Shown here: piece after piece, positions 1-56,555 of the stretch
Layout of the letters: each line of letters starts with the position of its first letter
How positions within the stretch are numbered: position 1 is the stretch's first letter
Source of the DNA: Escherichia coli
Lineage (GTDB): Bacteria; Pseudomonadota; Gammaproteobacteria; Enterobacterales; Enterobacteriaceae
DNA length: 64,000 nucleotides
Assembly (NCBI RefSeq): GCF_024502345.1
Contig: NZ_JALDNN010000001.1
Direction: 5' to 3' (one strand)
Program-made: the position numbers and the translations under genes
The notes under the pieces: generated by a model
Told to the model about the DNA's origin: nothing
What the model saw: only the letters and a program-made list of their open reading frames with translations
The model's database searches: none

Positions 1-2
1 GC

Positions 3-572
3 CTGGTGGCTTATCGCCCGCCTATCGACACCCGTAGCGTCAGTGAGATGCGCCAGATACCGCCAAACGGCTTCCCGGAAAAAGCACTTAACTTCCTGAC
101 GCCGCACCAGAAATGGGGCATTCACTCAACCTACAGTGAAAACCTGCTAATGCTGACGCTCTCTCGCGGTGGACCGATTGTCTGGATCAGCGAAACAGAT
201 GCCCGAGAACTGACCATTGTCGATAACGACTGGGTGGAAGTATTCAACGCCAACGGCGCGCTGACTGCCCGCGCGGTGGTCAGCCAACGTGTACCGCCGG
301 GCATGACCATGATGTATCACGCCCAGGAACGCATTATGAATATTCCTGGTTCGGAAGTAACTGGCATGCGCGGCGGCATTCATAACTCGGTCACCCGCGT
401 TTGCCCGAAACCAACGCATATGATTGGCGGTTACGCGCAGCTGGCCTGGGGCTTTAACTACTACGGCACCGTCGGATCGAACCGCGATGAGTTCATCATG
501 ATCCGCAAGATGAAGAACGTTAACTGGCTGGATGATGAAGGTCGCGATCAGGTACAGGAGGCGAAAAAATGA
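3..572 (+). CDS. narZ: Respiratory nitrate reductase 2 alpha subunit, C-terminal part (5' end lies outside window)
   Basis: ORF 6..572 translates to a nitrate reductase alpha C-terminus; 4-bp overlap with the following beta subunit gene; nar operon order. Confidence 0.85.
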   Translation: MVAYRPPIDTRSVSEMRQIPPNGFPEKALNFLTPHQKWGIHSTYSENLLMLTLSRGGPIVWISETDARELTIVDNDWVEVFNANGALTARAVVSQRVPPGMTMMYHAQERIMNIPGSEVTGMRGGIHNSVTRVCPKPTHMIGGYAQLAWGFNYYGTVGSNRDEFIMIRKMKNVNWLDDEGRDQVQEAKK

Positions 573-2113
573 AAATCCGTTCACAAGTCGGCATGGTGCT
601 TAACCTCGACAAATGTATCGGCTGCCATACCTGTTCGGTGACCTGTAAAAACGTCTGGACCGGGCGCGAAGGCATGGAGTACGCATGGTTTAACAACGTC
701 GAAACCAAACCGGGCATTGGTTATCCGAAAAACTGGGAAGATCAGGAAGAGTGGCAAGGCGGCTGGGTCCGCGATGTGAATGGCAAGATCCGTCCGCGTC
801 TGGGCAGCAAGATGGGCGTAATAACCAAAATCTTCGCCAACCCGGTGGTGCCGCAGATTGATGATTACTACGAACCTTTCACCTTCGACTACGAACATTT
901 GCATAGCGCACCGGAAGGCAAACATATCCCTACTGCTCGCCCGCGTTCACTGATTGACGGCAAACGGATGGACAAAGTGATCTGGGGCCCAAACTGGGAA
1001 GAACTGCTGGGCGGCGAGTTTGAAAAACGTGCCCGCGACCGCAACTTCGAGGCCATGCAAAAGGAGATGTACGGGCAGTTTGAAAACACCTTCATGATGT
1101 ACCTGCCGCGCCTGTGCGAACACTGCCTCAATCCCAGTTGCGTGGCGACCTGCCCAAGCGGCGCTATCTACAAACGCGAAGAAGACGGCATTGTGCTGAT
1201 TGATCAGGATAAATGCCGTGGCTGGCGTTTGTGCATTAGCGGTTGTCCGTACAAAAAAATCTACTTCAACTGGAAAAGCGGCAAGTCAGAAAAATGTATC
1301 TTCTGTTATCCGCGAATTGAGTCAGGCCAACCCACCGTGTGCTCAGAAACCTGCGTGGGTCGCATCCGGTATCTGGGCGTGCTGCTTTACGACGCCGACC
1401 GCATTGAGGAAGCGGCAAGCACCGAGCGCGAAGTTGACCTCTATGAGCGCCAGTGCGAAGTGTTCCTCGATCCACACGATCCCTCAGTGATCGAGGAAGC
1501 CCTGAAACAAGGTATTCCACAAAACGTGATTGAAGCTGCCCAGCGTTCGCCTGTCTACAAAATGGCGATGGACTGGAAACTGGCGCTACCGCTGCACCCT
1601 GAATATCGCACCCTGCCGATGGTCTGGTACGTTCCTCCGCTGTCGCCGATTCAGTCCTACGCAGATGCGGGCGGTTTGCCGAAAAGCGAAGGCGTGCTGC
1701 CCGCCATCGAAAGCCTGCGTATTCCGGTGCAATATCTCGCCAATATGTTGAGTGCCGGCGATACCGGTCCGGTACTGCGGGCGCTGAAACGGATGATGGC
1801 GATGCGCCACTATATGCGTTCACAAACCGTGGAAGGCGTTACTGATACTCGTGCCATCGACGAAGTAGGCCTGAGCGTCGCCCAGGTCGAAGAGATGTAT
1901 CGTTACCTCGCCATTGCCAACTATGAAGATCGTTTTGTCATCCCGACGAGCCATCGGGAAATGGCGGGCGATGCCTTCGCAGAACGCAACGGCTGCGGTT
2001 TTACCTTTGGCGACGGTTGTCACGGCTCGGACAGCAAATTCAACCTGTTCAACAGTAGCCGTATCGATGCCATCAACATCACCGAAGTGCGCGACAAAGC
2101 GGAGGGCGAATAA
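569..2113 (+). CDS. narY: Respiratory nitrate reductase 2 beta subunit (Fe-S)
   Basis: 514-aa ORF with multiple Cys-x-x-Cys ferredoxin-type clusters; position after narZ. Confidence 0.95.
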   Translation: MKIRSQVGMVLNLDKCIGCHTCSVTCKNVWTGREGMEYAWFNNVETKPGIGYPKNWEDQEEWQGGWVRDVNGKIRPRLGSKMGVITKIFANPVVPQIDDYYEPFTFDYEHLHSAPEGKHIPTARPRSLIDGKRMDKVIWGPNWEELLGGEFEKRARDRNFEAMQKEMYGQFENTFMMYLPRLCEHCLNPSCVATCPSGAIYKREEDGIVLIDQDKCRGWRLCISGCPYKKIYFNWKSGKSEKCIFCYPRIESGQPTVCSETCVGRIRYLGVLLYDADRIEEAASTEREVDLYERQCEVFLDPHDPSVIEEALKQGIPQNVIEAAQRSPVYKMAMDWKLALPLHPEYRTLPMVWYVPPLSPIQSYADAGGLPKSEGVLPAIESLRIPVQYLANMLSAGDTGPVLRALKRMMAMRHYMRSQTVEGVTDTRAIDEVGLSVAQVEEMYRYLAIANYEDRFVIPTSHREMAGDAFAERNGCGFTFGDGCHGSDSKFNLFNSSRIDAINITEVRDKAEGE

Positions 2114-2808
2114 TGCAGATCCTCAAAGTGATCGGCCTGTTGATGGAGTATCCGGACGAGCTGTTGTGGGAATGCAAGGAGGACGCGCTGGCGTTGATCC
2201 GCCGCGACGCGCCGATGCTTACGGATTTCACCCACAACCTGCTTAACGCGCCGCTGCTGGATAAACAGGCCGAATGGTGCGAAGTGTTTGACCGTGGACG
2301 TACCACATCGCTGCTGCTGTTCGAACATGTTCATGCCGAGTCCCGCGATCGCGGCCAGGCAATGGTGGACCTGCTGGCGGAGTATGAAAAGGTCGGCCTG
2401 CAGCTGGATTGTCGGGAACTGCCCGATTATCTACCGCTGTATCTGGAGTATTTAAGCGTACTGCCTGACGATCAGGCGAAAGAAGGATTGCTCAATGTTG
2501 CGCCGATCCTCGCCCTGCTTGGCGGTCGCTTAAAACAACGCGAGGCACCGTGGTACGCGTTGTTTGATGCTCTGCTGCAACTGGCGGGAAGTACACTTTC
2601 AAGTGACAGTGTCACAAAACAAGTAAACAGCGAAGAGCGCGATGACACCCGCCAGGCGCTTGATGCAGTGTGGGAAGAGGAACAGGTGAAGTTTATTGAA
2701 GATAACGCCACGGCGTGTGACAGCTCGCCGCTTAATCAATATCAGCGACGCTTTAGCCAGGATGTCGCGCCGCAATATGTCGACATCAGTGCGGGAGGTG
2801 GGAAATGA
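2113..2808 (+). CDS. narW: Nitrate reductase 2 assembly chaperone (delta)
   Basis: 231-aa ORF start overlapping narY stop; operon position. Confidence 0.9.
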
Positions 2809-3485
2809 TTCAGTATCTGAACGTCTTTTTTTACGATATCTACCCGTACATTTGTGCGACGGTGTTTTTCCTCGGCAGCTGGCTGCGCTACGACTACGGG
2901 CAGTACACCTGGCGCGCCTCCTCAAGTCAAATGCTCGATAAACGCGGGATGGTGATATGGTCGAATCTGTTCCATATCGGCATTTTGGGGATTTTCTTCG
3001 GGCACTTGTTCGGCATGTTAACGCCGCACTGGATGTACGCGTGGTTTTTGCCAGTGGCAGCGAAACAACTCATGGCGATGGTGCTCGGCGGTATTTGCGG
3101 TGTGTTGACGTTGATTGGCGGCGCAGGACTGCTGTGGCGCAGGCTGACAAATCAGCGCGTGCGTGCCACTTCCACTACGCCGGATATCATCATCATGAGC
3201 ATTTTGCTGATCCAGTGTCTGTTGGGGCTAAGTACCATACCGTTTTCAGCACAGTATCCTGATGGTAGCGAAATGATGAAGCTGGTGGGTTGGGCGCAAA
3301 GCATTGTCACTTTCCGTGGTGGATCGTCAGAGATGCTTAACGGTGTAGCGTTCGTTTTCCGCTTGCATCTGGTGTTGGGAATGACCATCTTCCTGCTCTT
3401 CCCGTTCACCCGACTGGTGCATGTGTGGAGCGCGCCGTTTGAGTACTTCACCCGCCGGTATCAGATTGTGCGCTCGCGGCGATAA
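2805..3485 (+). CDS. narV: Respiratory nitrate reductase 2 gamma subunit (cytochrome b)
   Basis: 226-aa hydrophobic ORF, 4-bp overlap with narW; operon position. Confidence 0.9.
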
Positions 3486-3563
3486 TTTTCACCCTGGCCG
3501 GATAGCCCTTCGCTCTCCGGCCACTTGCAGGCTATGATAGTTCTCCAGCCCAGGAGAACGTTA

Positions 3564-4053
3564 ATGAAACCGCAGGTTTACCACGTCGATGCTTTTACCT
3601 CTCAACCATTTCGCGGCAATTCTGCCGGTGTTGTTTTCCCCGCCGATAATCTTAGCGAAGCGCAAATGCAGCTTATCGCCCGCGAATTAGGTCATTCGGA
3701 AACCACTTTTCTGCTGCACAGCGACGACAGCGATGTGCGCATCCGCTACTTTACGCCAACCGTTGAAGTTCCGATTTGTGGTCACGCGACAGTAGCTGCA
3801 CACTATGTACGTGCGAAGGTGTTAGGTTTAGGAAATTGCACGGTCTGGCAAACATCGCTGGCAGGAAAACATCGCGTGACTATCGAAAAGCACCACGATG
3901 GTTATCGTATTTCGCTGGAACAAGGTACGCCGGGCTTTGAGCCACCGCTGGAAGGTGAAACACGTGCGGCGATTATCAACGCGCTTCATCTCACTGAGGA
4001 CGATATTCTGCCAGGCTTGCCAATTCAGGTGGCAACAACAGGACACTCAAAAG
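3564..4053 (+). pseudogene. yddE: PhzF-family isomerase YddE, 3'-truncated by IS903-family element (about 163 codons retained; the recalled full length is 297 aa)
   Basis: ATG at 3564 (MKPQVYHVDAFTS...); reading frame runs straight into the IS left inverted repeat at 4054 and stops a few codons inside it. Confidence 0.7.
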
Positions 4054-5110
4054 GGCTTTGTTGAATAAATCGAACTTTTGCTGAGTTGAAGGATCAGATC
4101 ACGTATCTTCCCGACAACGCAGACCGTTCCGTGGCAAAGCAAAAGTTCAAAATCACCAACTGGCCCACCTACAATAAAGCCCTCATCAACCGTGGCTCCA
4201 TAACTTTCTGGCTGGATGATGAAGCTATTCAGGCCTGGTATGAGTCAGCAACACCTTCTTCACGAGGCAGACCTCAGCGCTATTCTGACCTTGCCATCAC
4301 GACTGTGCTGGTCATTAAACGCGTATTCAGGCTGACCCTGCGCGCTGCGCAGGGCTTTATTGATTCCATTTTTTCTCTGATGAACGTTCCGCTACGCTGC
4401 CCGGATTACAGCTGTGTCAGCAGGCGGGCAAAGTCGGTTAATGTCAGTTTCAAAACGCCCACCCGGGGTGAAATCGCACACCTGGTAATTGATTCCACCG
4501 GGCTGAAGGTCTTCGGTGAAGGCGAGTGGAAAGTCAAAAAGCATGGCCAGGAACGCCGCCGTATCTGGCGTAAGCTGCATCTCGCCGTTGACAGTAAAAC
4601 ACATGAAATCATCTGCGCTGACCTGTCGCTGAACAACGTTACGGACTCAGAGGCCTTCCCCGGGTTAATCCGGCAAACCCACCGGAAAATCAGGTCAGCC
4701 GCCGCCGATGGCGCTTACGATACCCGGCTATGTCACGATGAACTGCGGCGTAAGAAAATCAGCGCGCTTATCCCTCCCCGAAAAGGTGCGGGTTACTGGC
4801 CCGGTGAATATGCAGACCGTAACCGTGCAGTGGCTAATCAGCGAATGACCGGGAGTAATGCGCGGTGGAAATGGACAACAGATTACAACCGTCGCTCGAT
4901 AGCGGAAACGGCGATGTACCGGGTAAAACAGCTGTTCGGGGGTTCACTGACACTGCGTGACTACGATGGTCAGGTTGCAGAGGCTATGGCCCTGGTACGA
5001 GCGCTGAACAAAATGACGAAAGCAGGTATGCCTGAAAGCGTGCGTATTGCCTGAAAACACAACCCGCTACGGGGGAGACTTACCCGAAATCTGATTTATT
5101 CAACAAAGCC
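4054..5110 (+). mobile_element. IS903-family (IS5 superfamily) insertion sequence, 1057 bp, copy 1
   Basis: 18-bp terminal inverted repeats GGCTTTGTTGAATAAATC at both ends; 1057-bp length matches IS903; identical second copy at 52638..53694; no 9-bp target-site duplication. Confidence 0.85.
4131..5054 (+). CDS. IS903-family DDE transposase (307 aa from GTG; the ORF track extends to 4086)
   Basis: ORF fills the IS; IS5-family transposase-like sequence (…NWPTYNKALINRGSITFWLDDEAIQAWY…); GTG start inferred from the 307-aa IS903 transposase length. Confidence 0.8.
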   Translation: MAKQKFKITNWPTYNKALINRGSITFWLDDEAIQAWYESATPSSRGRPQRYSDLAITTVLVIKRVFRLTLRAAQGFIDSIFSLMNVPLRCPDYSCVSRRAKSVNVSFKTPTRGEIAHLVIDSTGLKVFGEGEWKVKKHGQERRRIWRKLHLAVDSKTHEIICADLSLNNVTDSEAFPGLIRQTHRKIRSAAADGAYDTRLCHDELRRKKISALIPPRKGAGYWPGEYADRNRAVANQRMTGSNARWKWTTDYNRRSIAETAMYRVKQLFGGSLTLRDYDGQVAEAMALVRALNKMTKAGMPESVRIA

Positions 5111-5483
5111 TATGCAAGGAGTATTTGATCATGTATAAGCAATAAAAACAGCTTCAGGAAATAAGGAATATCGCAATTTTTAAACATAAAATGCGAATCG
5201 TTCAATACAAAAAAGCAGCGTTGCGTAATCTTTCCCTGATTAAATACGCTACTGCCCTACCCTGATGACATGATCTGCACTGCACTATCATATAGACATG
5301 TTTCTCAACATGCGAAAAGATGTTTTATTTTCGGATTATATTAAATTGATATTTCATATAAAAAATGAAATTACATCAATCATATAAATAATTGTACCAA
5401 CTTTAATTACTATTCATAGCAAACAAATGGATATCCAGTTAACTACGCCAGTGATTCATTAACATTAACCTCCGGCATTATTG

Positions 5484-6101
5484 TTAAATAATGACATTCC
5501 TTTTTAATACTTCTTGTAATTTCGGTAACTGACATACAGCATCAGCAATCGCACTGATATTCGTGGCATTATCCTGAAACCATTCATGCCCAGGCCCCCA
5601 TGTACGCATAGTGCAAAGATAACAGTCCACCAGCGTTAGTTGCTCACCAAACGCATAAGGTTCAGCAGTGAGCTGCGAATTCAGCCAGATATAAAGCGAT
5701 TTTCGATATTCAATAACATTCTTCTTTAACTGTTCAGGTGCGTCAGGAGCCCAACGCTCAGGGTAATCGGCGAAAGTGAATGTTGGATAGATATTAGCAA
5801 CCAGCCAGACCAATAGCCGTTGAAACTGCTGGCGTTCGGTGCGCCCAACCGGTGGCGCAAGGTCCGGGCGACGATCGAGAACCATCAATGCAATCGCCGC
5901 TGTCTCCGTCATAATCTCGTCATTTTCCAATGCCAGTGTCGGAACCTGACACAACGGGTTCAGGGTTTTCAATAACTCGCGTGAAGCTCCCTCGTGGTCA
6001 AAACCACTGACATCAACGAACTGATAAGGAATATCAGCCAGTGTTAGCATCAGCTCACTGATTGTAGAGCCCCATCCGGGTACGCCATACACCTTAATCA
6101 T
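5484..6101 (-). CDS. yncG: Glutathione S-transferase homolog
   Basis: 205-aa ORF with GST-like N-terminus; position next to ansP. Confidence 0.8.
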   Translation of the reverse strand: MIKVYGVPGWGSTISELMLTLADIPYQFVDVSGFDHEGASRELLKTLNPLCQVPTLALENDEIMTETAAIALMVLDRRPDLAPPVGRTERQQFQRLLVWLVANIYPTFTFADYPERWAPDAPEQLKKNVIEYRKSLYIWLNSQLTAEPYAFGEQLTLVDCYLCTMRTWGPGHEWFQDNATNISAIADAVCQLPKLQEVLKRNVII

Positions 6102-15306: not shown

Positions 15307-15650
15307 CAAGATCTTCTCATACTCTCCAGGTTTACAACATTATCCTTAATATTTACTTCTTTTTGCTGGCATCTACATTGAAATGAGTAGAAAACATCCC
15401 CCTACTGTCGTCTATACAAACAGCTTACTGATTCAAAGGGAATCTTGTTTTCACATTTTTCTATCATGAATACTTTATACGCGCGGGAGTCTATAAATGC
15501 TTTATACTTTCAAGGAATAACGCAAATATAAAAAGATGGCGTAAAGTATATGCATGGCAGGATGTTTGCAACCTCCTTCATGACGCTGCCCCATTGAAAT
15601 TGCAAACCCCGCCCTGGTTATCTTGCCCATTTATCATGCAAAACAGATAA

Positions 15651-16460
15651 TTATAGGCCTCTGAATACCTCAGAAAGATTGAATTTTTTATAGTCCCTCT
15701 CTTGAATATTTCCATTTGAAATCAATCGATTCATCTCTTCAACAAAATAATTTATATCATCACACTTGTTATTATCCGGAAGATCTGAGTAGTTATAATT
15801 CCACCATTTTATTCTCAACAGTTCATCAATAACATTTGAATCAAACCTAAATCTGATTATTTTTGCAGGAACTCCTGCAACTATGGCATATGGGGGCACA
15901 TCTTTGGTAACAACGGAATTGGCAGCAATAACAGCACCATCACCTATTGTGATGCCACCTTTCAATACAACATCATTTCCTATCCAGACATCATTTCCTA
16001 TAATCGGATTTTCAGGTTTTGTAATGAATGGTTTCAATGTCCAGCTACGTTCAAACTCACTCATAGCAAACTTATCAAATTCACCGTTATAAGTCATCAT
16101 GTGAGTAGTAAAACGATTCAAAGAATGATTTCCACCCATTATTTTTACATTTGATGCAATACTACAAAATCGACCTATACGTATATTCCCTGAAAAATGA
16201 CAGGTCGGAAATGAAAAAGCGCCGACACTGGAGAAATTTTTTACAGGCATTGTTGAATATTCTTCAGCAATAACATTATCTTCAATTGTTATCTTGTCAC
16301 CTTTTGAGAAAAGAAATAAATTCCTTTCTTTATACGACTTCTTCCCCTTATGATTTAAAAAGATTTTATTATCCATACAAAACTCAAAGTGTTTTTTCGT
16401 CCATCTGAAGGTAAGGGGTTTATTTTTATCTTCCGTGAATTTGTACAATTGAACTTTCAT
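15651..16460 (-). CDS. Hexapeptide-repeat (left-handed beta-helix) acetyltransferase, Vat/CatB-like xenobiotic acetyltransferase family, with N- and C-terminal extensions
   Basis: 269-aa ORF; motif …IIGNDVWIGNDVVLKGGITIGDGAVIAANSVVTKDVPPYAIVAGVPAKIIRFRF… typical of streptogramin/chloramphenicol acetyltransferases; gene and flanks are markedly AT-rich relative to neighbours. Confidence 0.75.
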   Translation of the reverse strand: MKVQLYKFTEDKNKPLTFRWTKKHFEFCMDNKIFLNHKGKKSYKERNLFLFSKGDKITIEDNVIAEEYSTMPVKNFSSVGAFSFPTCHFSGNIRIGRFCSIASNVKIMGGNHSLNRFTTHMMTYNGEFDKFAMSEFERSWTLKPFITKPENPIIGNDVWIGNDVVLKGGITIGDGAVIAANSVVTKDVPPYAIVAGVPAKIIRFRFDSNVIDELLRIKWWNYNYSDLPDNNKCDDINYFVEEMNRLISNGNIQERDYKKFNLSEVFRGL

Positions 16461-16669
16461 TGTTAATACTTCTACTTATAAAGTATTAGTTTAATAACGA
16501 TACTCTAAAGCCTTATGCTAATCAACTGTGACAGGATGAAAAATCGCCATCAAACATTTAGCCTAATTTTTACGCTAGTTATTAATGTAATCATTCTAAT
16601 ACTTAACCGCCATTAAACTCAGAACCGAAAACGATAGTGGCCGTCCTATAACAGCCACTAACATCTAAC

Positions 16670-27591: not shown

Positions 27592-28764
27592 ATGCGTCTG
27601 TTTTCTGTTCCTCCACCCACGCTACTGGCGGGGTTTCTGGCGGTATTAATTGGCTACGCCAGTTCAGCGGCAATAATCTGGCAAGCAGCGATTGTCGCCG
27701 GAGCCTCCACTGCACAAATCTCTGGCTGGATGACGGCGCTGGGGCTGGCAATGGGCGTCAGTACGCTGACTCTGACATTATGGTATCGCGTACCTGTTCT
27801 CACCGCATGGTCAACGCCTGGCGCGGCTTTGTTGGTCACCGGATTGCAGGGACTAACACTTAACGAAGCCATCGGCGTTTTTATTGTCACCAACGCGTTA
27901 ATAGTCCTCTGCGGCATAACGGGACTCTTTGCTCGTCTGATGCGCATTATTCCGCACTCGCTTGCGGCGGCAATGCTTGCCGGGATTTTATTACGCTTTG
28001 GTTTACAGGCGTTTGCCAGTCTGGACGGTCAATTTACGTTGTGTGGAAGTATGTTGCTGGTATGGCTGGCAACCAAGGCCGTTGCGCCGCGCTATGCGGT
28101 AATTGCCGCGATGATTATTGGGATCGTGATCGTTATCGCGCAAGGTGACGTTGTCACAACTGATGTTGTCTTTAAACCCGTTCTCCCCACTTATATTACC
28201 CCTGATTTTTCGTTTGCTCACAGCCTGAGCGTTGCACTCCCCCTTTTTCTGGTGACGATGGCATCGCAAAACGCACCGGGTATCGCAGCAATGAAAGCAG
28301 CCGGATATTCGGCTCCTGTTTCGCCATTAATTGTATTTACTGGATTGCTGGCACTGGTTTTTTCCCCTTTCGGCGTTTATTCCGTCGGTATTGCGGCAAT
28401 CACCGCGGCTATTTGCCAAAGCCCGGAAGCGCATCCGGATAAAGATCAACGTTGGCTGGCAGCTGCCGTTGCAGGCATTTTCTATTTGCTCGCAGGTCTG
28501 TTTGGTAGTGCCATTACCGGGATGATGGCTGCCCTGCCCGTAAGTTGGATCCAGATGCTGGCAGGTCTGGCGCTGTTGAGTACCATTGGCGGCAGTTTGT
28601 ATCAGGCGCTGCATAATGAGCGTGAGCGCGACGCGGCGGTGGTGGCATTTCTGGTAACGGCAAGTGGATTGACGCTGGTCGGGATTGGTTCTGCGTTTTG
28701 GGGATTAATTGCCGGAGGTGTTTGTTACGTGGTGTTGAATTTAATCGCTGACAGAAACCGATAA
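27592..28764 (+). CDS. ydcO: BenE-family membrane transporter
   Basis: Hydrophobic multi-pass ORF; start taken at MRLFSVPP (the upstream extension overlaps the sutR promoter). Confidence 0.8.
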   Translation: MRLFSVPPPTLLAGFLAVLIGYASSAAIIWQAAIVAGASTAQISGWMTALGLAMGVSTLTLTLWYRVPVLTAWSTPGAALLVTGLQGLTLNEAIGVFIVTNALIVLCGITGLFARLMRIIPHSLAAAMLAGILLRFGLQAFASLDGQFTLCGSMLLVWLATKAVAPRYAVIAAMIIGIVIVIAQGDVVTTDVVFKPVLPTYITPDFSFAHSLSVALPLFLVTMASQNAPGIAAMKAAGYSAPVSPLIVFTGLLALVFSPFGVYSVGIAAITAAICQSPEAHPDKDQRWLAAAVAGIFYLLAGLFGSAITGMMAALPVSWIQMLAGLALLSTIGGSLYQALHNERERDAAVVAFLVTASGLTLVGIGSAFWGLIAGGVCYVVLNLIADRNR

Positions 28765-49722: not shown

Positions 49723-52637
<2,915 letters not shown>

Positions 52638-53694
52638 GGCTTTGTTGAATAAATCGAACTTTTGCTGAGTTGAAGGATCAGATCACGTATCTTCCCGACA
52701 ACGCAGACCGTTCCGTGGCAAAGCAAAAGTTCAAAATCACCAACTGGCCCACCTACAATAAAGCCCTCATCAACCGTGGCTCCATAACTTTCTGGCTGGA
52801 TGATGAAGCTATTCAGGCCTGGTATGAGTCAGCAACACCTTCTTCACGAGGCAGACCTCAGCGCTATTCTGACCTTGCCATCACGACTGTGCTGGTCATT
52901 AAACGCGTATTCAGGCTGACCCTGCGCGCTGCGCAGGGCTTTATTGATTCCATTTTTTCTCTGATGAACGTTCCGCTACGCTGCCCGGATTACAGCTGTG
53001 TCAGCAGGCGGGCAAAGTCGGTTAATGTCAGTTTCAAAACGCCCACCCGGGGTGAAATCGCACACCTGGTAATTGATTCCACCGGGCTGAAGGTCTTCGG
53101 TGAAGGCGAGTGGAAAGTCAAAAAGCATGGCCAGGAACGCCGCCGTATCTGGCGTAAGCTGCATCTCGCCGTTGACAGTAAAACACATGAAATCATCTGC
53201 GCTGACCTGTCGCTGAACAACGTTACGGACTCAGAGGCCTTCCCCGGGTTAATCCGGCAAACCCACCGGAAAATCAGGTCAGCCGCCGCCGATGGCGCTT
53301 ACGATACCCGGCTATGTCACGATGAACTGCGGCGTAAGAAAATCAGCGCGCTTATCCCTCCCCGAAAAGGTGCGGGTTACTGGCCCGGTGAATATGCAGA
53401 CCGTAACCGTGCAGTGGCTAATCAGCGAATGACCGGGAGTAATGCGCGGTGGAAATGGACAACAGATTACAACCGTCGCTCGATAGCGGAAACGGCGATG
53501 TACCGGGTAAAACAGCTGTTCGGGGGTTCACTGACACTGCGTGACTACGATGGTCAGGTTGCAGAGGCTATGGCCCTGGTACGAGCGCTGAACAAAATGA
53601 CGAAAGCAGGTATGCCTGAAAGCGTGCGTATTGCCTGAAAACACAACCCGCTACGGGGGAGACTTACCCGAAATCTGATTTATTCAACAAAGCC
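52638..53694 (+). mobile_element. IS903-family insertion sequence, 1057 bp, copy 2 (identical to copy 1, same orientation)
   Basis: Same 18-bp terminal inverted repeats; the encoded ORFs are identical to copy 1; no target-site duplication. Confidence 0.85.
52715..53638 (+). CDS. IS903-family DDE transposase
   Basis: Identical to the transposase ORF at 4131..5054. Confidence 0.8.
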   Translation: MAKQKFKITNWPTYNKALINRGSITFWLDDEAIQAWYESATPSSRGRPQRYSDLAITTVLVIKRVFRLTLRAAQGFIDSIFSLMNVPLRCPDYSCVSRRAKSVNVSFKTPTRGEIAHLVIDSTGLKVFGEGEWKVKKHGQERRRIWRKLHLAVDSKTHEIICADLSLNNVTDSEAFPGLIRQTHRKIRSAAADGAYDTRLCHDELRRKKISALIPPRKGAGYWPGEYADRNRAVANQRMTGSNARWKWTTDYNRRSIAETAMYRVKQLFGGSLTLRDYDGQVAEAMALVRALNKMTKAGMPESVRIA

Positions 53695-54038
53695 GAGTGA
53701 TGCGTTACTTTCCGGTAAAAATAAAAAGGTAAATAGAGCGCAATATCGGAAATAACATCGCCAGTTTCATTCAAAATCGCCCCCAGACGTGTTTGCTGAT
53801 TGCACTCACGCGCCAACATGCCATCCAGCGCATTGAGCGCCATACGGATAAAAAGCACGATGGGCAATAGCAAAAAGAGGATGGGTTGTGCCACCAACAC
53901 CAACAGCAATCCGGTAAAAAGAGAAAGCGCCAGTGCCGTAAGAGTGATGTGATTCGCTGTAACGTGGTGCTTATAAAGCCAAAACATCGTCGGCCTTAAC
54001 AGCGACTGAAAGAGCGGTTTTATCTGGTAGAGCGTCAT
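53695..54038 (-). pseudogene. ynbA: CDP-alcohol phosphatidyltransferase-family protein YnbA, 3'-truncated by the IS element (about 114 codons retained)
   Basis: ORF begins MTLYQIKPLFQSLL… and continues into the IS right end. Confidence 0.65.
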
Positions 54039-54287
54039 TTATCATTCCGTGATATTCAGTTTGCTCTATGGTGCATCAATTGTGATGGCGGAGATATCAC
54101 AACGCGGAGCATCAACGTAAATTCGGAATATATCAAGATGTGGTGGATGGTTTTCCTACACATCTGTTTGATTACCGACTGGATGTCAGTGAGATACCAT
54201 CGATCACTGTACGAATCAATGAATCCATTGCCTTTTCCCTGATTATCCAGCCGCAAATCCTGGCCTTAAACATATGCACTCCATGCC

Positions 54288-54328
54288 ATTAAAAAAGAAA
54301 CAAAAGGGAAATGCATCTTTCCCTTTTG
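54288..54328 (-). terminator. Rho-independent terminator downstream of ydbC
   Basis: 11-bp stem CAAAAGGGAAA/TTTCCCTTTTG followed on the minus strand by a T-rich run. Confidence 0.55.
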
Positions 54329-54336
54329 TATATTCG

Positions 54337-55197
54337 TTATTCTCGCGAAATACCATCCAACGTAGACAACACTTCCTCAGAAAGATGCAATTTTTCAGCA
54401 GCCATATTCTCCCGTAAATGCGCAACAGAAGACGTCCCTGGGATCAGCAAAATATTCGGTGAACGTTGTAACAGCCACGCCAGCGCCACCTGCATGGGTG
54501 TTGCACCCAGGCTCGCAGCAACATCGGAAAGTGTGGACGATTGCAGCGGTGTAAAGCCCCCGAGCGGGAAGAACGGCACGTAGGCAATGCCATCGTGGGC
54601 CAAAGCATCAATCATTGCATCATCAGCACGGTGCGCGATGTTGTATTCGTTTTGCACACAGACAATTTCGGCAATCTTGCGCGCCTCTGCAACCTGCGTC
54701 GGTGTGACATTGCTCAGGCCAATATGTTTTACCAGGCCTTGTTGTTGCATCTCTGCCAGCACGGTCAGGCTGGCCTCAATCGATCCTTCCGCTGGGCCAT
54801 GACCATCCCCCATCATAACGCGCAGGTTAACCACATCCAGCACGTCCAGCCCGAGATTACGTAGATTATCGTGCACCGCTTTTTGCAGCTCTGCCGGAGA
54901 AAATGCGGGCAACCAGGAAGCGTCCTCTCCACGCCGCGCACCAATTTTAGTGACAATTGTCAGGTCGTCAGAGTAAGGATAAAGCGCTTCGCGGATAATC
55001 TGATTGGTGACGTGCGGACCATAAAAGTCGCTGGTATCAATGTGAGTGACGCCCAATGCCAGCGCCTCACGCAGCACAGTTATAGCGACGTGGCGATCTC
55101 TTGGGGGACCAAAAACCCCAGGACCTGCCAGTTGCATCGCGCCATAACCAAGACGGTTAACGGATTTTGTACCGAGAGTAAATGTATTGCTGCTCAT
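54337..55197 (-). CDS. pdxI: Aldo-keto reductase (pyridoxine 4-dehydrogenase PdxI/YdbC)
   Basis: 286-aa AKR-fold ORF. Confidence 0.85.
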   Translation of the reverse strand: MSSNTFTLGTKSVNRLGYGAMQLAGPGVFGPPRDRHVAITVLREALALGVTHIDTSDFYGPHVTNQIIREALYPYSDDLTIVTKIGARRGEDASWLPAFSPAELQKAVHDNLRNLGLDVLDVVNLRVMMGDGHGPAEGSIEASLTVLAEMQQQGLVKHIGLSNVTPTQVAEARKIAEIVCVQNEYNIAHRADDAMIDALAHDGIAYVPFFPLGGFTPLQSSTLSDVAASLGATPMQVALAWLLQRSPNILLIPGTSSVAHLRENMAAEKLHLSEEVLSTLDGISRE

Positions 55198-55351
55198 CGC
55201 ACCCTGCCCTGTAATAAAACGGATTGAGAAAAATCAGTATAGAAACGAAAAGAGATAAATAATGCGAAGGCGTAAACAAGATTACTGGATGAGTTGCTCT
55301 ATTGTCCTGAAAAACACAAAACAAAACGCGTCAAGTACCGCATCCGGCAAT

Positions 55352-55383
55352 AAAAAACCGCAACCTGTATAGCGTTGCGGTTT
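55352..55383 (-). terminator. Rho-independent terminator downstream of paaY
   Basis: CCGCAAC/GTTGCGG stem with T-run on the minus strand. Confidence 0.55.
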
Positions 55384-55425
55384 AGGTATCACATGCTAAA
55401 AATTAGAATGTTCAGTATCTGGACG

Positions 55426-56016: not shown

Positions 56017-56555
56017 AACGCCTCCTGTTCAATATTCAAACCGCCAAAACGTTGAAAATACAGGCTTCCCGGCGCAGGCAGTTCACCGACCGAGGTTTCA
56101 CCTTTTTCACTAACGAACGCTAAAGCAGCAGGCGCTACGCGCTGATAAATGTTGATACACAGCTGACGCGCCGTATGCCCTGCCCAGTGCGCCGGAAGCA
56201 ACTCCTCTGGCAACAATGGGTCTTTAAGGACGACACGGCGATAAAAATGGATCAGTAAAAGCTGAATATGAAATGCACGCTCCGGGGTTAACTCGTCTGC
56301 TGCCTCTTTTAACAGCGGCACCAGCGGGCGGAATGACTGAATAAAGGTTTCGTACATGGCATTTTGTTCAGTTAAATGCCAGCACTCTTCCACTCTGGCA
56401 CGCAGTGCTGCACGAGAAAGCGCCAGTGGTATTTGCGCTTCAAAACAAATCACGTTATCCGCCAGAAGGGCATTATTTAGCGCATTACGTGCGGCGGGAC
56501 GGTTAAGGGTCAGCAACAATACTTGTTGCTGACGGCTGACGATCAGTTCGCTCAT
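55998..56555 (-). pseudogene. In-frame fusion remnant: first ~31 codons of enoyl-CoA hydratase PaaF joined to the C-terminal ~154 codons of repressor PaaX
   Basis: N-terminus MSELIVSRQQQVLLLTLNRPAARNALNNALL is a crotonase-type start, but the remainder lacks crotonase features and sits where the paaX 3' end should be; junction near 56462. Confidence 0.6.

Follow-up and report, generated by a model that had tools for sequence, protein, structure and literature searches.

IS903/IS903B, the flanking insertion sequence (IS) of Tn903, is 1,057 bp long, ends in 18-bp inverted repeats and encodes a 307-aa transposase (322 aa for the maximal ORF), features that the element described here shares. This IS normally generates a 9-bp target duplication, which neither of the two copies studied here has. 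Three routes have been listed by which an IS without a duplication can come to lie at a deletion: adjacent deletion, homologous recombination between two copies and, as a proposal, capture at a break (PMC11708052). Adjacent deletions are common for IS903 according to the statement in PMC11708052 that cites Weinert, Schaus and Grindley 1983. For IS150 in the long-term evolution experiment, 14 of 14 duplication-less deletion junctions were traced to an insertion that had occurred at the same site before the adjacent deletion took place (PMC11708052).

The stretch of DNA analyzed here (the window) comprises 64 kb of an Escherichia coli chromosome, and the coordinates of its IS-related features are collected in Table 1. 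The terminal repeats of copy 1 are perfect (18/18), and the 18-mer GGCTTTGTTGAATAAATC occurs four times in the window, at both ends of the two copies, compared to no occurrence in 100 shuffles. The transposase ORF matched the NCBIfam model NF033579 (IS5 family transposase) over the entire profile (positions 1–289 of 289) with 357 bits against a cutoff of 140. Over its 1,057 bp, copy 1 shows 99.905% identity to a copy in strain MSB1_9D that carries the RefSeq label "IS5-like element IS903B family transposase," and 99.5 to 99.7% identity to many plasmid and chromosomal copies. Judged by its sequence, with a single full-length DDE transposase and with a size and repeats that fit the IS903 group, copy 1 is IS903B, the name being assigned by near-identity to RefSeq-annotated copies. 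The first-pass annotation, which had described a 1057-bp IS903-family element with 18-bp inverted repeats, was therefore correct as to its extent and its repeats.

Table 1. Coordinates of the two IS903B copies and of the sequences flanking copy 1 in the 64-kb window.
Feature	Position	Strand	Remarks
Truncated yddE (PhzF-family isomerase)	3564..4064	+	163 native codons, 3 IS codons and a stop
Left 9-bp flank of copy 1	4045..4053		ACTCAAAAG; no repeat on the right
IS903B copy 1 (IS5 family, IS903 group)	4054..5110	+	1,057 bp, apparently intact
Left terminal inverted repeat	4054..4071	+	GGCTTTGTTGAATAAATC
Transposase ORF	4086..5054	+	322 aa from TTG 4086 or 307 aa from GTG 4131
Right terminal inverted repeat	5093..5110	-	Reverse complement of GGCTTTGTTGAATAAATC
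Right 9-bp flank of copy 1	5111..5119		TATGCAAGG; single occurrence in uninterrupted relatives
ISAs1/H-repeat 5'-end stub	5111..5245		yncG-proximal edge of the type VI secretion system (T6SS) island in relatives
Retained AT-rich spacer	5111..5483		From the deletion endpoint to yncG
yncG (glutathione S-transferase family)	5484..6101	-	Intact
IS903B copy 2	52638..53694	+	Same sequence and orientation as copy 1; at the ynbA'-ynbB-'ynbC deletion

Copy 2 is 100% identical to copy 1, both lying within 48 kb. With its transposase ORF and its two terminal repeats intact and with no sequence difference between the two copies in the window, the element was probably active recently and is probably still active. 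Copy 2 lacks a 9-bp duplication as well (ACGAGATGT at 52629–52637 versus GAGTGATGC at 53695–53703) and lies at a deletion of 1,321 bp, which took the first 149 nt of ynbC, the entire ynbB and the 3' part of ynbA, as measured against proxies 99.3 to 99.8% identical. An inversion or exchange between the two copies was considered and rejected, as both retain the flanks of their own neighborhoods in the reference orientation.

The bases directly outside copy 1 are ACTCAAAAG on the left and TATGCAAGG on the right, and no 9-bp direct repeat surrounds the element. This absence had been noted in the first-pass annotation together with the possibility of mis-indexing, which is countered by a positive control: the same reading applied to an IS5-family copy in ynbC of the horse strain A30, which carries the same terminal repeats as the IS903B of the window, recovered a perfect 9-bp duplication (TAATCTCTG). 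The absent duplication thus reflects the history of the insertions rather than a property of IS903B itself, and it is missing in both copies because of the associated deletions and not because of a different chemistry.

To the left of copy 1, the window is collinear with K-12 narY-narW-narV-yddE over positions 1–4053 at 98.3% identity. Within yddE, native codons 1–163 occupy 3564–4052 and the match to K-12 yddE (98.3%) ends at 4053, beyond which three codons and a stop (4062–4064) are read from the left end of the IS. The NCBIfam PhzF models likewise cover residues 1–163 of the stump, in a profile of about 300 positions, so that the truncation after about 163 codons proposed at first is borne out by both the K-12 alignment and the profile match. 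For annotation purposes, yddE is a pseudogene here and the interval a scar left by a deletion. Four ENA metagenome contigs, all of which end within the IS, also encode exactly this 166-aa YddE'-IS fusion product. The one of these that was read (L010) matches the window over 1–4186 except for a patch of 150 bp in narV, and ends 133 bp into the IS. Short-read assemblies stop at repeats, as this contig does inside the IS. The occurrence of the left junction on several contigs indicates that the yddE insertion is present in more than one sample.

In the narV patch, at the 3' end of the gene (3338–3486), L010 differs from the window by 10 substitutions and one indel clustered in 150 bp, the two being identical elsewhere in the 4.2 kb compared. 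The patch could be a short recombination or gene-conversion tract, or the product of a chimeric metagenome assembly.

To the right of copy 1, the spacer between the IS and the yncG stop codon is 373 bp long and has a G+C content of 31% versus 50% for the window. In an alignment of 5111–5485 to K-12, the first ~130 bp matched the 5' end of the ydcC H-repeat (ISAs1) at ~85% and the rest matched almost nothing; no part of it aligned to the K-12 yncG-yncH spacer, and collinearity with K-12 yncG-ansP-yncE and beyond starts from 5486. The earlier description of the IS as followed directly by AT-rich DNA and yncG is accordingly right in composition, but the DNA is not that found next to yncG in K-12. 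The stub is 84 to 85% identical to the DNA just upstream of K-12 ydcC and of the A30 ISAs1 ORFs. A landing of the IS exactly on the border of this repeated module, since the ISAs1 homology starts at 5111, was rejected because the homology in relatives extends ~25 bp further left, to the ISAs1 ATG.

The region 5111–5560 is contiguous in 695 of 5,426 complete E. coli genomes at 98.4 to 98.7% identity, and the spacer is 100% identical in a draft genome, L016 (GCA_017173755.1). In the carriers of this allele that were inspected (A30 from baboon, O145:H28 RM13514 and 33F4), the yddE-yncG interval holds nhoA, yddH, pptA, an ISAs1 remnant and one or two orphan type VI secretion modules composed of PAAR, VgrG, DUF2169, peptidase effectors and immunity genes; neither yncH nor rhsE was present in this interval of the three strains. 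By alignment, the right flank is a different natural allele, in which an orphan PAAR/VgrG/effector island replaces yncH-rhsE. Given this flank of PAAR/VgrG/effector and ISAs1-stub type, the K-12 gene list describes the wrong ancestor for the lineage. The order yncG, yncH, rhsE, ydcD, yncI, ydcC, pptA, yddH, nhoA, yddE given in the first-pass annotation is that of K-12; as a list of lost genes, it stands for nhoA, yddH, pptA and the 3' part of yddE, but yncH, rhsE, ydcD and yncI were probably never in this lineage. This Rhs/T6SS interval is hypervariable, and K-12 serves poorly as a reference for it.

Close relatives, consisting of drafts and metagenome contigs, were found by exact-sequence lookup of the YncG of the window, and IS903B was absent from all ten of the loci examined, L016 included. 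L016 was the closest relative found: its right flank is 100.000% identical for 10,121 bp, and its left flank, of which 1.2 kb is available, is 99.8% identical. It was followed by L015 (ENA ERZ27263756; 99.98% for the right flank and 99.75% for the left). Among the complete E. coli genomes, none was closer than 98.9 to 99.3% to either flank. From breakpoint to breakpoint, the uninterrupted interval measures 8,442 bp in L016, 8,443 bp in L015, 6,246 bp in L013, 7,456 bp in RM13514 and ~14.2 kb in 33F4. The multigene deletion of roughly 10 kb or more that had been guessed from K-12 is thus real and near that size, with 8,442 bp relative to the nearest relative. In L016, the lost segment contains yddE codons 164–297, nhoA, yddH, pptA, small ORFs and ISAs1 remnants, together with an immunity-like gene, a C39-peptidase/Tox-PAAR-like effector, DUF2169 and decayed PAAR/VgrG pieces.

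The uninterrupted sites in L016 and L015 read ...ACTCAAAAG/TGATGATCC... on the left and ...CTCCTTAAT/TATGCAAGG... on the right, the slash marking the breakpoint, and a comparison of these sequences revealed no microhomology between the breakpoints. Mapped against L016, L015 and L013, the deletion endpoints meet both IS ends to the base and the IS is retained. DNA of the lost 8.4-kb segment was not found elsewhere within the 64-kb window. As both flanks are in the K-12 order and orientation, the event was a deletion and not an inversion. Measured against these relatives, the IS903B-bounded multigene deletion at yddE-yncG is real.

We consider with moderate confidence that the likeliest route to the 8.4-kb loss was an adjacent deletion of the IS903 type, that is, intramolecular transposition. 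IS903B would initially have inserted by ordinary transposition at one of the present junctions: the ACTCAAAAG site within yddE, or the TATGCAAGG site within the ISAs1 stub that lies upstream of the orphan PAAR/VgrG island. The transposase would then have joined one IS end to a second chromosomal site ~8.4 kb away, removing the intervening DNA and, with it, one of the two 9-bp repeats made by the first insertion. Such a sequence of steps would leave a single intact IS with unrelated 9-bp flanks and a 163-codon yddE stump, at the expense of nhoA, yddH, pptA, the ISAs1 remnants and the T6SS effector/immunity cargo. We infer both the order of events and the role of the transposase, rather than host recombination, as the agent. 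Adjacent deletion is favored because the endpoints coincide with the IS ends, because the element is intact and recently active and because copy 2 bears the same signature.

An intermediate with the IS in yddE and no deletion would have the right end of the IS joined to ACTCAAAAGTGATGATCC, and one with the IS upstream of the island would have CTCCTTAATTATGCAAGG joined to the left IS end GGCTTTGTTG. Neither intermediate, with its 9-bp duplication, was present in the 5,426 complete E. coli genomes or in the exact-protein lookups. For the whole configuration or either junction, no genome of that set covered at least 80% of any query. An exact-pattern scan for the left junction gave no match in species-representative genomes, collections that hold few E. 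coli strains. No target-site consensus for IS903 was found in the literature searched.

The adjacent deletion suggested in the first-pass annotation is a reasonable reading, but its product is identical to that of recombination between two copies. Two independent IS903B insertions of like orientation, in yddE and upstream of the PAAR/VgrG island, would each have made its own 9-bp duplication, and RecA-dependent recombination between them would have excised the 8.4 kb and left a hybrid survivor, with its left flank from the yddE copy and its right flank from the other. We regard this route as possible but doubtful, even though its predicted structure is exactly the one observed. Substrates for it exist, as the window alone holds two identical copies within 48 kb, and IS903B occupies 30 to 47 places per genome in some E. 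coli strains; a nearby double insertion would not be improbable if the copy number in the source genome is high. Independent IS903-type insertions also occur in the yddE-yncG interval of MSB1_9D, DLI.6n and TC24. However, no single insertion with a duplication was found in any genome or contig searched, an absence from databases that is not exclusionary, and copy 2 would need two insertions merely 1.3 kb apart. For the 1,321-bp loss at copy 2, one insertion followed by an adjacent deletion is more parsimonious than two such close insertions in the same orientation. The mosaic signature expected of a hybrid IS is unreadable because the visible copies are 100% identical and offer no markers.

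A further route would be the capture of IS903B at a break during an unrelated deletion, in a single step and with no target duplication at any time, which we consider unlikely. Both copies in the window are free of a duplication and located at deletions, as is the case in E. coli C, which combines the same IS subgroup with the same signature (PMC11708052), and an IS-free 6.4-kb deletion in the paa operon of the window indicates that the lineage loses DNA without an IS. Nevertheless, break capture is a hypothesis even in PMC11708052, which concedes that a two-step adjacent deletion is possible there, and nothing in the sequence of the window demands it over the established routes. It is equally improbable that both copies arrived in a single step with their deletions and without a staggered target cut; if true, they would be cases from a natural isolate of a route for which the proposal has until now come from laboratory evolution alone (PMC11708052). 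Finally, it is highly improbable that nothing was lost, with the assembler collapsing two IS copies and dropping the segment or the IS relocating it elsewhere: 64 kb are visible, assembly errors typically arise at identical repeats of 1 kb and a short-read metagenome contig with the same left junction ends inside the IS, but the window reads straight through two 1,057-bp repeats of identical sequence, as would be expected of a resolved assembly, the same collapse would be needed at both copies, the flanks are collinear with the reference order and the missing segment is nowhere else in the window.

Several other differences from reference strains were observed in the window. The IS-free deletion of ~6.4 kb in the paa operon, at 56464/56465, joins mid-paaX to the paaF region (relative to L025 and L024), with a junction overlap of a few bases at most. 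Taken with the two IS-associated losses, it suggests that the lineage is losing genes from this chromosomal region. An insert of 1.3 kb just downstream of patD (15356–16668) is not in K-12 and is common to seven of the closest relatives (L011–L014, L017, L019 and L020); its ORF at 15651–16460 on the minus strand is predicted to encode a 269-aa hexapeptide-repeat acyltransferase, Vat/CatB-like, with scores far below curated cutoffs. The K-12 IS609 is absent at 28763/28764, and in 54138–55425 ydbD and the ydbA pseudogene (with IS2 and IS30) are absent and pdxI lies between ynbA and paaY. The IS609, ydbD and ydbA absences are shared by several other E. coli strains and look like natural alleles, not new events.

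Both the element and IS-driven gene loss are already well known, and the locus is an ordinary example with no new element or mechanism. Its value is that of a clean, base-resolved case of an E. coli chromosome being eroded as its IS903B population expands, and it adds a data point for studies on IS-driven genome reduction. The cost at copy 1 was a fragment of a PhzF-family gene, the arylamine acetyltransferase gene nhoA, yddH, pptA and an orphan T6SS effector/immunity island, and the cost at copy 2 was part of the lipid-related ynbABCD operon.

Compared to the adjacent deletions of IS903 (Weinert, Schaus and Grindley 1983, as presented in PMC11708052), the adjacent deletion favored here is alike in starting from an IS end, in keeping the IS and in leaving one flank unchanged. 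As far as that account goes, the classical deletions were watched happening on plasmids, whereas at yddE-yncG a chromosomal end product alone is seen, from which the route has to be deduced. Ec-Del-IS of E. coli C (PMC11708052) belongs to the same IS903 subgroup and likewise sits in the middle of a deletion without a duplication. However, that element is 1,051 bp long with 14-bp repeats and its deletion of 62 kb arose within a day in the laboratory, compared to the deletions described here, which measure 8.4 kb and 1.3 kb and belong to a natural lineage.

Other E. coli strains have IS903-type elements in the same interval. An IS5-like element in DLI.6n (L003, 8244–9300) is 93 to 94% identical to the element of the window and has flanks without a duplication. 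One alignment ran through the right junction into DLI.6n, but a shared junction was rejected, as the IS in that strain is 11 bp away and in a paralogous ISAs1 copy. Another counterpart is the IS903B of MSB1_9D (L004, 9001–10057), located at an ISEc1(ydcC)/yncH junction, which matches in the IS itself (99.9%), the interval and the orientation and also has no duplication. Its flanks correspond to K-12-type positions ~4.9 kb apart, with rhsE, ydcD, yncI and part of ydcC missing. Unlike the window, MSB1_9D has a K-12-type allele, other breakpoints and intact yddE, nhoA, yddH and pptA. The differing breakpoints and allele indicate that the MSB1_9D deletion was an independent event, and the yddE-yncG interval may act as a hot spot at which IS903-type elements insert.
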